Source of the DNA: Eledone cirrhosa
Lineage: Eukaryota
Length of the DNA: 64,000 nt
Assembly: GCA_964016885.1 (NCBI GenBank)
Contig: OZ024750.1
Span: 3,596,001-3,660,000, forward strand
Direction: 5' to 3'
A program made the position numbers and the translations under genes. The first letter of the stretch is position 1. Each line of letters starts with the position of its first letter. This document shows positions 8,043-51,517 of this stretch, piece by piece. The notes below the pieces were generated by a model. It searched no databases. It saw only the letters and a program-made list of their open reading frames with translations, and had not been told where the DNA came from.

Positions 8043-8292
8043 ACACCAACACACATATAAGTCTATTTCTTTGCAGAAATATCCCCTTATGCATATGCAT
8101 GAACATATCTCCCAGGGAGATATATATTCTATTTTATGCATGAACCCCTATTCACACAGGAATTGATATATCCTCTCAGATATCAACATATCTTCCTCTA
8201 TATCCATGCATAGGCAACCCCCTTGCTGGCAAGTAAAACAGATGTTAAATGATGATGATGATGATGTAGTCTTCTCTCTCTATATATATATA

Positions 8293-8483
8293 GGAACAAG
8301 TATGACCCCGACGGCAGAGCTCAAGCCGTTTCGACGGCTAATTCTGCCCAGAATTAGCCGCCGAAACGGCTTGAGCTCTGCCGTCGGGGTCATACTTGTT
8401 CCTATTACCCACTCCACTACCCTAAGTATTGAGTACTTTGGTGCGTTGTGGTCCACCTGGTTCCTTACCACATTTCCTTTGTT
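8293..8483 (+). mobile_element. Fold-back element family A, copy 1 (3' half of a hammerhead)
   Basis: About 55 bp inverted arms containing GAAACGGC-TTGAGCTCT-GCCGTC-GGGGTC, plus an approximately 80 bp tail. (TA)n flanks. Four copies in the window. Confidence 0.7.
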
Positions 8484-13049: not shown

Positions 13050-13250
13050 AACGAAGGAAATGTGGTAAGGAACCAGGTGGACCATAACGCACCAAAGTAC
13101 TCAATACTTGAGGTAGTAGAGTGGGTAATAGGAACCAGTAAGACCCCGACAGCTGAGCTCAAGCCGTTTCGACGGCTAATTCTGGACTCTTGAGTCCAGA
13201 ATTAGCCGTCGAAACGGCTTGAGCTCAGCTGTCGGGGTCTTACTGGTTCC
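13050..13250 (-). mobile_element. Fold-back element family A, copy 2
   Basis: Same tail and hairpin, apex CTGGACTCT|TGAGTCCAG, (TA)n flanks. Confidence 0.7.
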
Positions 13251-13277
13251 TATATATATATATATATATATATATAT

Positions 13278-22791: not shown

Positions 22792-22887
22792 ATTCGTTTG
22801 TTCACATTCCCAGAAGGTACTAGAAATCGTGATGGACGTATGTTACCATTCAAAAAAGGTGTTTTTCATTTGGCGGTTCAGTCCCAG
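22792..22887 (+). CDS. AGPAT1/2: AGPAT1/2-like exon (motif III)
   Basis: ttcag|ATT...CAG|gtatat, 96 nt. Encodes [32 protein letters not shown] (FPEGTRN motif). Confidence 0.95.
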
Positions 22888-23149
22888 GTATATTTATCTC
22901 ATTTCTCTTTCTTCACAAGTTAATTCTTTCAATACCAACCTGATTGTGTGATGACTAAAATTGATTTTAAATACAACTCACACATCCTCTCACTTACACT
23001 CACACATCAATAGCTCACTGGTTATTGAGTTCACATATTTCTTTTCTCCAAGTCATCACTCCCACTCTCTCTTTGTCTGTCTTTGTCTTATATACACATA
23101 TGTATTTGTGGTTGTGTGTGTGAGTATATACAAATATATATATATATCT

Positions 23150-23300
23150 AGGGTGGGTAAAATTCCCTCATTATCGCTGCCATGTCCTGCATCTCCAACA
23201 GACCAGTGTCTGTCCTTAGGGCATCAACATGCGTTAACCTTGGTCTTCCTCTTCCAGTGTGTCTGGGGCTCCCACAGGAGCACTGAGTGCAATGTCAATA
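23150..23300 (-). mobile_element. RTE-like LINE 3' coding remnant
   Basis: Minus-strand translation GRGRPRLTHVDALRTDTGL, typical of RTE C-termini. Confidence 0.45.
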
Positions 23301-23344
23301 TATATATATCATCATCATCATCATTTTACGTCCACTTTTCCCTG

Positions 23345-23390
<46 letters not shown>

Positions 23391-23513
23391 GGAGGTGAGT
23401 TTTATTGTAGTACAATAAAGCAATGCAGATATCGGATAAGAAGCACTCTACAGTTTGTAGGACTGGAGTATACATAATATATAAGATCAAAAGATGGTTA
23501 AAGGAGTTCCATG

Positions 23514-23584
23514 TATTTTATTATGCGCATTTCAAAAACAAACATCATCATGCAATAATATTTGTGTTTTCATCAGATAAAACA
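23514..23584 (-). ncRNA. Mirror copy of the same hammerhead ribozyme
   Basis: Exact reverse complement of 23700-23770, within the inverted repeat. Confidence 0.8.
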
Positions 23585-23699
23585 GGAGAACATGATATGA
23601 AGGCTAAAAAACACTTGTGGATAGTGCAGTTGATTTAAAACTGTTGATTTAAAACTGCACTATCCACAAGTGTTTTTTAGCCTTCATATCATGTTCTCC

Positions 23700-23770
23700 T
23701 GTTTTATCTGATGAAAACACAAATATTATTGCATGATGATGTTTGTTTTTGAAATGCGCATAATAAAATA
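23700..23770 (+). ncRNA. Type I hammerhead ribozyme, apparently intact, minimal palindromic stem III
   Basis: Stem I UGUUUUAU/AUAAAAUA; core CUGAUGA (23708-23714); long stem II with G-U wobbles; GAAA (23751-23754); stem III AUGCGCAU; cleavage triplet AUA ending at 23762. Confidence 0.8.
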
Positions 23771-23800
23771 CATGGAACTCCTTTAACCATCTTTTGATCT

Positions 23801-23850
<50 letters not shown>

Positions 23851-24170
23851 GGAAAAATGATGAGATTTTTCATTTAGATGTATTTATTTTTTGTTGAATC
23901 ATCATCATCATCATCGTTTAACGTCCATCTTCCACGCTTGCATGGGTTTGGACGGGAATTTTCCCACTTGAGGCAACATTGGTTGTCTTGCTCGTATAGG
24001 ACTATCTGGCGGGTTTTCTATGGCTGGATGCCCTTCCTAACACCAACCACGTTTACAGATCTCTGCATAACACCAACCACTGATAAACAGATCTCTGCAT
24101 CTTTTTATACAGCTATCATCCTGCATATGCATCACATGTCCATAGCACCACAATCTCCTCTCCTGCACAC

Positions 24171-24212
<42 letters not shown>

Positions 24213-24423
24213 CATAATTTCGTTTTCAAATATAATTGTAATTGATCATAAAATGATTGATTTTGATAAGTCCTAATGAGGATGAAACAATTGTAAATCA
24301 AGATTTGGTGTGAAATTGTATTTGGTAATACTTTAATGTATATAAATATAAACACACAGAGGGAAACACATGCATATATTCACCATTGAAATGGCATAAG
24401 CTCAGCTGTCAGGCACTAGCATT

Positions 24424-24466
<43 letters not shown>

Positions 24467-24888
24467 ACTTCTGTAATGGCTGTTCTTCTTTAATGATCAA
24501 ATGTTTTACTATGTGTAGTTGTAGTAACTACTTAGTGATCAGGTGTTTTGTGTTTGAGTTTCTCACTTTTAGAGCAATTTTGAAACTGGTCTTTCTCTCC
24601 TGAGTCTTGCAGTTAATATAATATATCCCTGTTGAATATCTGGAGAGTGCAGTGTTTATATGGAACGAAATAATAAAAAACATGCAAATGAAATCAAATC
24701 AAATCGAGTATAATAAATAAATTTAAAAAATGACACAGTTGTTGTGGGTGTTAGGTGAGGGGAGGGGGTAGGATGTGAGGTGAATATAATCGAGGATAAG
24801 ATGTAAATATGATATGAACCAGAAGTTCACAAGGATTAGAAATAAAAAGAAATGTTTTGTTCCACAAGTAAATGGCACACACCCACTC

Positions 24889-24942
<54 letters not shown>

Positions 24943-24947
24943 TATAT

Positions 24948-25109
24948 AATGAAGGAAATGTGGTAAGGAACCAGATGGACCATAACACACCAAAGTACTC
25001 AATACTTAGGGTAGTAGAGTGGGTAATAGGAACAAGTATGACCCCGACGGCAGAGCTCAAGCCGTTTCTTCGAAACGGCTTGAGCTCAGCCGTCGGGGTC
25101 CTACTCATT

Positions 25110-25111
<2 letters not shown>
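24948..25111 (-). mobile_element. Fold-back element family A, copy 3
   Basis: Same tail, shorter arms carrying different variants, (TA)n flanks. Confidence 0.7.
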
Positions 25112-25154
<43 letters not shown>

Positions 25155-25155
<1 letters not shown>

Positions 25156-25375
25156 AAGGCGTGTGGCTGAGTGGTTAGAGAACTGGATTCGCAATCGTGA
25201 GGTTGTGAGTTCGATTCCTGGACCGGTCAATGCGTTATGTCCTTGAGCAAGACACTTTATTTCACGTTGCTCCTTCTACCTGGAGTTACGACCGATAGAT
25301 AATATTAGCAATTGGAAAGACCAATGGAAACACTGTTTCCTCGGTCCGATTTGATGAAAGTCGATCGTTAGGAAT
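25155..25375 (+). mobile_element. tRNA-derived SINE, second subfamily
   Basis: A box tggctgagtggtt, B box gagttcgattcc, distinct tail. A second copy lies at about 27585-27790. Confidence 0.75.
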
Positions 25376-25388
25376 AAAAATAAAAAAA

Positions 25389-25432
<44 letters not shown>

Positions 25433-26231
25433 GATTGTGTGTGTACTAATGCTATTCCATCCAACCATCCACTACCAGCAATAGCACCAGTTTTTAAACC
25501 ACCAAATCAAAGACACACAGGTATTTGTTGGTGTGTGTGTATGGGTGCATGTTTGTGTGGGTGCATGTGTTTGTGTGTATGGGTGCATATGTTTGTGGGT
25601 GGGTACATGTATTTTTCCTTTTCTTTCTGACTACTCCTTGTTAAGATCTGGCTCATATTGTGTTGTTTATATTTAACCTCGATTGATTTAATTTGATCCT
25701 CCGATCACATTACTCTCCCTATAATCCTGGCAAATATCTGGGGAAGTGGGGGAGAGCTTATACGAAAAAATGTACAAATCAATTGAAATTAATTGTGGAT
25801 AAAAAATAAACATGTTTGTCACTGTTTGGTGGTTTAACCCTTTGGCATTTAAACCAGAAGTCTCTCACCTCTTTCTGTTCAAACTGGTTGCTCATACTTA
25901 TGTTAACCCTTTAGCATCAAAACCGGCCATATCTGGCCAGAGTTATCTTACCTCTTTCTGTCCAAACCAGCCATAACTGGCTGCTCATACTGATGCTAAG
26001 GTATTGTTCTCAAAATAAATAACATCAAAATCTCATAGACTTGAAATTATGTAAGATAAAGCCTTTACGACGAAAATACAATAGTAAATATAGAGTAATT
26101 TAAATACTAAAGGGTTAAAGAACTGAGAAAAAAATTAGTTTTTAAAGATAGATCTTTTTGTTCTCGAATTCTATGTTAAAAGGTTCAACTTATGAATAAC
26201 TTCTGGGTTTTTTTTTTGGTTTTTTTTTCAG

Positions 26232-26304
26232 GTTCCAATTATACCAGTCATATTTTCGTCATTTCAGCCATTTTATAGCAAAAGTGAAAAAAAAATGGAG
26301 CCTG
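26232..26304 (+). CDS. AGPAT1/2: AGPAT1/2-like exon (motif IV)
   Basis: tttcag|GTT...CCTG|gtaatt, 73 nt. Encodes VPIIPVIFSSFQPFYSKSEKKMEP. Confidence 0.93.
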
Positions 26305-26807
26305 GTAATTATATTTTTAGAGTGTTTTCTAAGTTAAAATGATTTTAAATTTATAATTTCTGCATTGTTGGTGAATGTTAAAGTGTTACCTGCCATATGG
26401 TGGCTAATGTGGGGTGTATAGAATATACCTTTGCCACTGTGGGTAAACAGTAGGTAAATAAATATAAATAAATAAATTCACAATACCTGCATCTAGCTAA
26501 AACAACAATATAATATTTTAAAAAGTAGTGAATTTAAGATAAAGGAAGTAAAAATATTGAGGAAAGGGAATATATATTTTCATGTATGTATATTCCATTT
26601 GTCAGAATGGACAAAGGAAGGAGAAAAAGAAAATGTAACTTTGTACAAATGCTCAGCAGGTGACTATTGTGTGTGTGTGTGTGTGTGTGTGTGTTCGTTC
26701 CAGTATAGCATTCCTTTACTTTTCAATTTCCCTCACTCTTTGCTTGTCATTCTGCTCAGTACATATACTCTTCCTTCAACCCATATGTTAATTCTTTCTT
26801 TCTCTTA

Positions 26808-27262: not shown

Positions 27263-27870
27263 GATCCTTAAATTAAGGAACAACAACTCCTTTAGTATTG
27301 TTATATAAGTGATATTATGATGCTAGACAGACTATAATGGAACTGAATATCCTACTAAAATAAAGTACAATAAGAAATGCCAACCTAGTCGGTGGAACAA
27401 AAATAACTTTAATCACAGGGTTGTGGGTTCGAGCCCCACATTGGACAAAGGGTTTGTTTATGAAAGTAGTTCCCCAGCATTGCTACAGTTCAATGACTGA
27501 ACTCAGTAAAAGAATAAAAGAATTCTAACCATAGGTAACATGGCCATTTTAGCTAATTTAGGATATATTTTACTGTTTTCACAAGGCTGATTGGTTAGAG
27601 AACTGGACTCACAATTGTGAGGTTATCAGTTCAATTCCTGGACTGGGCGATGCGTTATGTCCTTGAGCAAGACACTTTATTTCACGTTGCTCCTTCTACC
27701 TGGAGTTGCGACAGAGAGATACTACTAGCAATTGGAAAGACCAATGGAAATATTGTTTCCTTGCTCCAATTTGACAAAAGTCAATCGATCTTCCCTTAAC
27801 TGTTTTTTTAAATGGATAAATTAATTGTTTTATTTTCCTTTAATTTTCTTTCTTCTTTTTTTTCCAATAG

Positions 27871-28349
27871 GTAAATTTATTATTACTATCTTATCTCCAA
27901 TTCCAACAACTCGTCTGAAGTCAAGTGATGTTAATGATTTATGTGAAAAAATCCAAACTCAGATGGAGAACGTCTATTACAAAACTTCACATGAAATTTC
28001 GCCTATTGTTCTCGGTGGTAGTTCAATCACTTCAAAGGAGAAGCGACCGATATCGGTATCAGTAGGTTCACTGACTGACTCTGGAGGTCTGGGAGTGTTA
28101 GAAAGGATTGAAGAAGAGTCTGGTGAAAGTAATATAGAAACAATCAGTTCTGATGTTAACACAAAAGAAGGACAAAGATTACAAAGTGACCGATGTATAG
28201 AAACAGCAGTTGCTGATGCACACTCTACCATGGAAAGACTAAATAGAAGCAAACAAACAGAAGAATTAGCTCAGAAAATTGTTGCAAAAACAGTTAAAGA
28301 GGCACAAGAACTGGTAAAAGCAAATTCTTTCAGAGAAGCTGAAAAATGA
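27871..28349 (+). CDS. AGPAT1/2: AGPAT1/2-like last coding exon with long C-terminal extension
   Basis: Polypyrimidine tract plus aatag|GT, in phase. GKFIITILSPIPTTRLKSSDVNDLCEKIQTQM matches the AGPAT C-terminal region, and the frame stays open to TGA at 28347-28349. Confidence 0.85.
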
Positions 28350-41140: not shown

Positions 41141-41467
41141 ACCAAGATACCCTCATGGAATGACCAAATGATCTTTATATTTCAGCATAGTCCCTGGAAA
41201 GAAACAATGACCAAGATACTCTCATGGAATGACCAAATGATCTTTATATTTCAGCATAGTCCCTGGAAAGAAACAATGACCAAGATACTCTCATGGAATG
41301 ACCAAATGATCTTTATATTTCAGCATAGTCCCTGGAAAGAAACAATGACCAAGATACTCTCATGGAATGACCAAATGATCTTTATATTTCAGCATAGTCC
41401 CTGGAAAGAAACAATGACCAAGATACTCTCATGGAATGACCAAATGATCTTTATATTTTAACATAGT
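41141..41467. repeat. 69 bp tandem repeat (about 4.7 copies) derived from the mariner-type MITE
   Basis: Unit accaagatactctcatggaatgaccaaatgatctttatatttcagcatagtccctggaaagaaacaatg matches the MITE interior. Confidence 0.92.
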
Positions 41468-42224
41468 AACTGCATTGTTTCTTTCCAGGGACTAATAAGA
41501 AGAGTTGAAATTAATGCATGCAAGATTTCACAGTGCTAGCTGTAAAAATACAATATGTTGAAATAACAATATTAAATTCTAGTAAATTAAAAAGATGGTG
41601 TAAAAAATCTAATTAATAAAAATAATTTAATTATTTGAAATTTCCATATTATATTCTATCTAGTAGATATTGTCACCTATGGTGACTTTGGAGAGCTTAT
41701 GATATATAACTCAAATTTATTAACTTCTGTTAATTCTTTTGGAGTAGCATCATACATCAAAAGCATGTATTATCTTTGATGAAGAGACCTTGGAATAAGT
41801 TTAACCCTACATTTTGTTTTGTATGGTTTAATCAAGAGATAGCCATGTCCTTGACCTTCGTATGCCCTTCAAGATTTGTGAGGTTGATATAGTTGATGCT
41901 CAGTTTGGAAATGTTTTAAGCTGACATCAGCAGTAAAAATATGAATGGAAGGAGATTTCCAGAGGATTGATGTATTGGAGAGAATTCACCATAGTGATTG
42001 ACACTGGGGTCAAGGTGGAATGGACAGGGTGGGTGGGTGGTAGAGATTGTAGGATAATATGCATTTAGCTTTTTGTCTGGATCAGCGGTTATTGTATTTA
42101 CTATAGAAAACAAAGAGGGAAGAGAGGGCATCTGTAAGGTAGAGGTTGAAAAAGGCTCTGAAGTTTCCCTCTAATAATTATTTAAGGAAGCCAACATACT
42201 TGCAGTATTGCTGCATTTGATAAC

Positions 42225-44776: not shown

Positions 44777-44813
<37 letters not shown>

Positions 44814-44930
44814 GAAAACGAAAAATCAGTGATGCATCTGAACTCAATTTATTGTGTTATATATATATATATATATATATATAACACAATAAATTGAGTT
44901 CAGATGCATCACTGATTTTTCGTTTTCTAT

Positions 44931-44950
<20 letters not shown>
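44777..44950. repeat. Perfect inverted repeat centred on (TA)n, flanked by (GA)n/(TC)n
   Basis: atagaaaacgaaaaatcagtgatgcatctgaactcaatttattgtgt and its exact reverse complement. Confidence 0.9.
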
Positions 44951-45219: not shown

Positions 45220-45239
45220 ATATATATATATATATATAT

Positions 45240-45429
45240 AACGAAGGAAATGTGGTAAGGAACCAGGTGGACCATAACGCACCAAAGTACTCAATACTTA
45301 GGGTAGTAGAGTGGGTAATAGGAACGAGTAGGACCCCGACGGCTGAGCTCAAGCCGTTTCGACGGCTAATTCTGGACCAAAATTAGCCGTCGAAACGGCT
45401 TGAGCTCAGCCGTCGGGGTCCTACTCGTT

Positions 45430-45431
<2 letters not shown>
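45240..45431 (-). mobile_element. Fold-back element family A, copy 4
   Basis: Same tail and hairpin, (TA)n flanks. Confidence 0.7.
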
Positions 45432-51217: not shown

Positions 51218-51400
51218 TGTCGGGTTCATTTGGGGGTAACCACAGTAAGTAAAGTACTCAATACATTAGTAGAGTATATAGAAATGGCTTCTACAGGACT
51301 ACAACTGTTTCATTTGAAGGAAATCACCAGGAAAACTTTCTTAATGATTTCCTTCAAATGAAACAGTTCTAGTCCTGTAGAAGCCATTTCTGTATTAAAT

Positions 51401-51462
<62 letters not shown>

Positions 51463-51517
51463 ATGGCTCCTACAGAACTAGAACTGTTTCATTTGAAGGA
51501 AATCATTAGGAAAGTTT
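51218..51517. mobile_element. Fold-back element family B, three alternating hammerhead-like arms
   Basis: Tail, then a minus arm (about 51277-51335), a plus arm (about 51336-51395), (TA)n, and another minus arm (about 51457-51516). Cores are degenerate (CTGGTGA, TTAATGA, CTAATGA). Confidence 0.6.

Follow-up and report, generated by a model that had tools for sequence, protein, structure and literature searches.

The inverted repeat inside an AGPAT intron of Eledone cirrhosa is, to judge from its sequence, the pseudo-LTR (pLTR) of a young Penelope-like element (PLE) of the Hydra clade. It very probably represents a short insertion without an ORF, whose inverted repeat was made during insertion itself, by priming from both target ends on one uncleaved RNA. 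The family is a new one in a known clade, and the copy in the AGPAT intron is ordinary transposon debris. Our literature search, which covered mainly open-access papers, returned no publication on this family, or on cap-G run-off stubs in PLEs. We use "the window" for the whole 64-kb stretch of DNA that was analysed, and all unprefixed positions refer to it.

The whole element occupies 23387-23810 and is bounded by (TA)n tracts on both sides, in the order (TA)n, tail, arm A, turn, inverted arm B, (TA)n, with the tail-bearing arm on the minus strand (Table 1). A previous sequence-only reading had delimited the feature as 23474..23810, a span that covers the repeat and misses the 87-nt tail (23387-23473) of the same element. 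The perfect 158-bp inverted repeat proposed there stands: arms 23474-23631 and 23653-23810 pair with 0 mismatches around a spacer of 21 nt. Relative to the arm-end hot spot described below, the two arms stop at about +4 and about +15 and not at +1, with a 14-nt duplication between them, and we infer that the turn (23629..23656) arose by re-priming on the template followed by joining at microhomology. Both copying start points have a small bulged hairpin after them (23440-23478 on the minus strand; L031:1228-1266); the two fold weakly alone (z -0.95 and z -0.12), so that their position is all these folds show. In raw DNA reads from two further samples, strand-switch joints occur at 23631 (1-3 read starts each) along with (TA)n loose ends at the start of arm B, in both cases evidence at the level of the family, not of this locus.

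Table 1. Features of the insertion and of the AGPAT exons that flank it (positions in the window)
Feature	Position	Strand	Remarks
AGPAT exon upstream of the intron, FPEGTR motif	22792..22887	+	Pfam PF01553, E 1.2e-8
Left (TA)n target tract	23347..23386	.	Nearly every terminal copy listed has (TA)n after its tail
PLE tail, ~90 nt	23387..23473	-	In full-length copies continues into 5' UTR and ORF (copies L031, L039, L059, L062, L096); first small bulged hairpin at about 23443-23473
Arm A: pseudo-LTR in element sense, contiguous with the tail	23474..23631	-	5' end falls short of the inferred start site by ~15 nt
Type I hammerhead of arm A, antisense to AGPAT pre-mRNA	23514..23584	-	Predicted cut 23522/23521; motif on both strands
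Turn: 14-nt piece of the pLTR 5' end in two head-to-tail copies	23629..23656	+	3-nt overlap with arm A
Arm B: inverted pseudo-LTR copy without tail	23643..23810	+	From ~+4/+5 of the inferred start site to an internal TA-rich site
Type I hammerhead of arm B, sense to AGPAT pre-mRNA	23700..23770	+	Predicted cut 23762/23763
Right (TA)n target tract	23808..23848	.	Read from the sequence
Next AGPAT exon, VPIIPV, closing the intron	26232..26320	+	3' end approximate

The hammerhead first noticed on the plus strand sits in the tail-less inverted arm B, and all its parts lie where they had been placed. Stem I (23700-23707/23763-23770) has 8 bp, including one G-U; the core consists of CUGAUGA at 23708-23714 and GAAA at 23751-23754; stem II has 3 bp, a C.U mismatch, and 12 bp, including three U-G pairs; and the palindrome AUGCGCAU at 23754-23761 forms stem III, with the cut predicted after A23762. 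An identical hammerhead, the mirror of the plus-strand copy, is found on the minus strand in arm A. The type I features CUGANGA, GAAA, UH, and three helices are all present, and the motif bears out the assignment to PLE-type hammerheads with a palindromic stem III. No hammerhead family appears among the 113 Rfam matches to the whole 64-kb window (E<=1). As an 81-nt piece the motif folds no better than its shuffles (z -0.15), and the exact monomer hammerhead fold is predicted at -6.4 kcal/mol with a probability of 3e-5, while pairing of the stem III palindrome with a second copy is predicted at -10.5 kcal/mol. Small PLE hammerheads are said to cleave as dimers, a result credited to Lunse et al. 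A lone copy with a palindromic stem III is described as a poor cleaver without a tandem partner (PMC4209133). By analogy, the plus-strand hammerhead, which has no tandem partner, would be expected to cleave poorly even without the antisense arm.

To examine the fold among relatives we used a relaxed pattern, which retrieved 42,013 related hammerheads genome-wide; from 65 distinct variants, 23 were picked by hand as a sister-family set. In this set 97.4% of cells are paired. Two-sided changes are seen at every one of the five proximal stem II pairs tested and at one pair of stem III, whose palindrome occurs as GCGC, AUAU, or AUGU. The count of six two-sided pairs was reached by 180 of 500 shuffles, and the share of paired cells and the covariation score by none; the variants are kin, so these shuffle counts are not probabilities. 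The core letters were set by the search pattern, and their invariance across variants is no evidence. The base pair of stem II that is G10.1-C11.1 elsewhere is A-U at this locus, and in the 23 variants it is A-U in 13, G-U in 7, and G-C in 2. In a second set, of 16 close variants also picked by hand, the three U-G pairs are replaced in some members by U-A, C-G, and C-G, and stem II is still 98.8% paired; 9 of its 15 pairs vary on one side and are still paired, and 0 vary on both. This alternation within a paired stem bears out the earlier argument that the wobble pairs reflect selection on the RNA fold. Since the fold covaries across sister families, that selection would have acted in the replicating transposon, not at the AGPAT locus. 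Across the 42,013 hammerheads (L131-L160; genome-wide), stem I and the core are common and stem II differs. Nearly all of them keep 3 bp and then a C.C or C.U mismatch in stem II, perhaps as a tertiary contact. The H17 base is A in 65/65 distinct variants.

A 29-mer from the core has 11,783 exact matches in the genome; a pattern for a tail segment has 8,741, and the reversed controls have 0 in each case, so the motif is no product of chance. A search with one arm scored at least 40 full-length copies at 96-100% identity, of which 10, the window included, are 100% identical over 166 nt. Identity of the arm to unlinked loci points to a very young insertion.

We looked for an autonomous partner in 20 stretches with core matches 1-7 kb apart, and these hold long ORFs of one protein. 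Copy L031 has the order pLTR with hammerhead, tail, 5' UTR, and ATG, and the short unit equals the pLTR plus tail of such ORF-bearing copies. The ORF of copy L033 encodes 800 aa with, by motif, an RT and a GIY-YIG-type C-terminal domain (LIYEC...YFGST). It has the motifs RRLRW, SDKT (SDKTNN), and YRDD, a CxCx5C linker (CNCRIKNKC), and a C-terminal part with CxxC and CxH around a conserved E and N (CNLC-LNEK...N...CLH); CCHH is absent from this protein as read by eye. At the N-terminal RWK place RW is kept and K is replaced by T or I, with RWK present in four of five homologues. At E<=1e-63 the protein is matched by 18 homologues, all of them unnamed. The one Pfam match to the ORF is unrelated (E 0.24) and none is to an RT or GIY-YIG model, so the clade is assigned by motifs. 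These RT, DKT, CxCx5C, and C-terminal endonuclease (EN) features are those by which the Hydra clade is defined (PMC8557442, section 11). Two further traits of the clade are present, a hammerhead in the pLTR and insertion into (TA)n, together with two PLE insertion traits, an inverted 5'-truncated copy and a tail at one end (23387-23473); inverted copy and tail are general PLE features (PMC8557442). The C-terminal EN and the hammerhead rule out the Naiad clade.

The layout at the AGPAT locus is the usual one for the family. As a sample we took the first 100 matches to the tail on contig C1, which cover the initial 62 Mb of one chromosome (one duplicate row dropped), and 75/100 tail copies carry an inverted arm that starts at the internal TA-rich site. 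Copies that are pLTR only make up 44/100, and those with two whole hammerheads in a short hairpin, like this locus, 26/100. A second tail-ended arm occurs in 11/100 (insertions counted from both ends) and other inversions in 3/100; by the rule of the script 11/100 have no inverted arm, though some of them still show a very short one. The outer end of the inverted arm lies at reference 3640/3643, two positions 3 nt apart, in 69/75. The family has two fixed start points on the outer side, some 90 nt from each other. At 24/41 loci both arms of an insertion agree in all of 108 nt, versus 8.5% of between-locus pairs, which suggests one template for the two; later gene conversion could contribute to this identity. 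Arm lengths within one insertion are often very unequal (up to kilobases), and turns vary among most short copies while their arm ends coincide. Unequal arms and a variable turn rule out a MITE with terminal inverted repeats.

Similar shapes occur around the element and in other families. Two-armed stubs of another (TA)n family, with the same layout of tail, arm, variable turn, and inverted arm, lie at 8290-8480, 13050-13253, 24950-25110, and 45230-45430; a hammerhead scan of these four stubs in the window found none. A fifth stub of that family abuts the element in L001. Palindromic insertions of other sequence are found among (TA)n and (GA)n tracts at 51280-51508 and 44792-44949, and 41188-41494 holds a 69-nt tandem repeat with one inverted partial copy. 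Copies of the present family are adjoined in L050:1475-3219 by a GC-rich broken ORF with GVAMGT and HPTHTK motifs, which we take to belong to another PLE clade.

The short hairpin might instead be a self-propagating non-autonomous element, retrozyme- or MITE-like, that the Hydra RT re-inserts as a unit. The exact 41-nt turn of this locus is common to five loci, with the tail on the same side in 4/5, which would suit such a unit, and animal retrozymes have been proposed to be non-autonomous PLE derivatives (bioRxiv 10.64898/2026.07.22.740005). However, the fifth locus (L130), a member of another subfamily, carries its tail at the opposite side, which argues that the turn recurs independently. 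Most short copies differ in their turns yet coincide in their arm ends, no long head-to-tail array of the short monomer was found in the 100 copies (isolated tandem pairs only), and the unit matches what ORF-bearing copies already contain as pLTR and tail. We therefore regard propagation of the hairpin as a unit as unlikely.

The inner ends were examined in 157 arms in L031-L125. Of these, 73 read through upstream into the 3' UTR, and 43 of the 84 short arms stop at -1..+1, within three bases of a point 69 nt above the hammerhead core; of the remaining short arms, 8 stop at +2..+6 and 33 are scattered over the next 137 nt. Genome-wide, the position before +1 holds G in 2,198 arms, A or T in 2,266, and templated TC in 5,471 (other C lies outside this count), so that G makes up 49% of the G/A/T class versus 20% by base composition. 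A sample of 114 comprised 66 templated ends, 20 palindromic joins, and ends with G (12), other C (7), T (5), and A (4). The context of the hot spot, TTCATA, presumably fits the initiator consensus. We infer that the hot spot may be the transcription start of an internal pLTR promoter and the extra G a copied cap, by analogy with the internal promoter of Penelope in D. virilis (PMC2377424) and with L1, where an extra G marks copying of the cap (PMC11702581). If the hot spot is a transcription start, the short copies would be run-offs from the 5' pLTR of the element mRNA. The hot spot also coincides with a CATATG palindrome, where annealing end to end or pausing of the RT could contribute ends, and the extra G could reflect a terminal-addition bias of the RT.

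We also considered whether arm ends at the cut site might be fossils of hammerhead cleavage, and rejected this for the sample, in which scattered ends within 2 nt of the cut show no enrichment (3/33 vs 1.2 expected, p 0.12). Genome-wide, a base other than A immediately precedes the cut in 199 copies; the control position, one nucleotide further along, gives 131. By a hand count of the first 100 rows of each, about 44 (cut) and about 40 (control) are junctions, the rest being substitutions or small deletions; extrapolation gives about 88 junctions at the cut site versus about 52 at the control, or ~1.7x. Cut-site ends are thus somewhat commoner than those at the neighbouring position, and a little cleaved template may be copied, while they are about 50 times rarer than the 4,464 non-C hot-spot ends genome-wide. 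Their rarity bears on the templates that became copied, and not on cleavage as such.

In the proposed insertion, a cut in a (TA)n tract would leave two ends, each of which would prime reverse transcription on the same uncleaved element RNA. Copying would run off at the capped 5' end, where the cap would be copied as an extra G, and the two cDNA copies would be joined back to back to give the inverted repeat. A PLE protein is known to nick and extend both strands, and to use unprocessed RNA with two internal start sites that bound the tail (PMC11167929). The origin of the tandem and inverted ends of PLEs has been stated as an open question (PMC8557442). On balance we favour the fuller reading that the hairpin stubs are a fossil record of the Penelope insertion cycle, in which a single capped, uncleaved mRNA is copied at its 5' pLTR by priming from either end of the break, and the copies run off at a transcription start 69 nt above the hammerhead, take in the cap, and then anneal to each other. 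If this is true, the promoter can be mapped from DNA alone, the inverted pLTR is explained, and in copied templates the hammerhead stays mostly silent; there would also be about 2,300 perfect hairpins genome-wide (26% of 8,741, extrapolated) open to A-to-I editing. A young, high-copy family with fixed starts, a sharp inner end, and an extra G yields exact predictions for PLE copying, and its stubs, if transcribed inside host genes, are a large and young source of perfect double-stranded RNA.

The host gene was correctly recognized as AGPAT: two plus-strand exons match Pfam Acyltransferase PF01553 (E 2e-6 and 1.2e-8), and the element lies inside the intron 22888-26231. Elsewhere in the same intron, 24255-24303 on the plus strand resembles a type I hammerhead in degenerate form: stem I has 6 bp, the CUGANGA core is altered at two places, stem II has 4 bp, GAAA is present, and stem III is palindromic; it is probably an old PLE remnant of another family. 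The last AGPAT exon (27825-28346, plus strand) ends in an acidic, helical-looking C-terminal extension of about 130 aa.

In the AGPAT pre-mRNA, pairing of the 158-bp arms is predicted to bury the sense hammerhead. The hairpin 23387-23812 is predicted at -277.7 kcal/mol (z -42) and by this model would outcompete the hammerhead fold at -6.4, in agreement with the sequestering hairpin that had been suggested. It would bury both hammerheads, likely as a by-product of insertion and not as a selected function. One sequencing run whose kind is unrecorded (X4) has, among the differences listed, an A>G at 23523 on 22 contigs at 575/3,724 depth (15%), compared with 3/2,503 and 2/2,982 reads in two DNA runs and 27 genomic copies with the variant; reads on the element are family-wide and not assignable to this locus. 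If X4 is RNA, the difference possibly marks A-to-I editing of the antisense arm somewhere in the family. Among the sequencing runs listed as containing the element none is recorded as RNA, which tells neither for nor against expression.

That the inverted arm is kept here to silence the sense hammerhead, or as an ADAR or Dicer substrate that regulates AGPAT, would accord with the great predicted stability of the hairpin, with the antisense arm being transcribed first, and with editing in the family if X4 is RNA, but we think it very unlikely. About a quarter of the sampled copies share the shape whatever their location, the copy is very young and 100% identical to unlinked loci, the X4 reads are not assignable to this locus, and the same window holds at least four two-armed stubs that are alike but come from another family, without a hammerhead in the scan. 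The earlier idea of an arrangement specific to AGPAT accordingly fails on two counts, the inverted arm being usual in the family (75/100) and the copy matching at least nine unlinked loci over 166 nt. Most improbable is an inverted copy made by later DNA fold-back or template switching, or as a chimera of assembly or amplification: a quasi-palindromic turn containing a 14-nt duplication, and outer ends in self-complementary (TA)n, would suit it, but the inverted arm begins at the same internal site in 69/75, arms as unequal as those seen (up to kilobases) are not the yield of simple fold-back, and the joints at 23631 recur in raw DNA reads (family-level).

The element can be compared with several known systems, among them the Hydra clade (Craig et al. 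2021, PMC8557442; e.g. Hydra-1_Obim and Penelope-13_HM). Its members likewise have a single ORF with RT and then a C-terminal EN; DKT, CxCx5C, CxxC, and CxH without CCHH; a pLTR hammerhead; (TA)n targets; and a tail at one end. An inverted 5'-truncated copy of Penelope-13_HM is listed in the supplement. The hammerhead of Hydra-1_Obim has another stem II and stem III, so the Eledone element is another family. The unit here is about 3.7 kb with a 1-kb 3' UTR whereas most are <3 kb, and its tail is about 90 nt as compared to the typical 30-40; it also differs in having RWT or RWI for RWK, and in a 15-bp stem II with a C.Y mismatch kept across sister families. PLE hammerheads as described by Cervera and de la Pena (2014, PMC4209133) share the type I core, the palindromic helix III/loop 3, and the dimer-dependent architecture, with low in vitro activity in theirs, and differ from the long A/U-rich stem II found here, which is without the G10.1-C11.1 pair. 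Animal non-LTR retrozymes are similarly non-coding, with a type I hammerhead and a PLE pLTR origin (bioRxiv 10.64898/2026.07.22.740005; PMC7229834), but the first of these sources defines them by tandem units with at least two consecutive hammerheads, as opposed to the two inverted ones here. The inverted, not tandem, hammerheads, and sequence equal to the pLTR of ORF-bearing copies, rule out a non-LTR retrozyme.

For the copying step, one parallel is Poseidon_Ac in vitro (Frangieh et al. 2024, PMC11167929), with two internal RT starts bounding the tail, extension of both strands, AT-rich targets, and unprocessed RNA as the main template. It belongs to another clade, and the available part of that paper contains neither a genome-wide count of two-armed run-off stubs nor a hot spot at the start site. 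Twin priming in L1 (PMC11702581) is alike in that a second reverse transcription is primed from the other DNA end, with microhomology at the inversion and an extra G at full-length 5' junctions. Its products cover adjacent parts of the RNA, whereas in the Eledone element both arms cover the same part, and the outcome is a palindrome.
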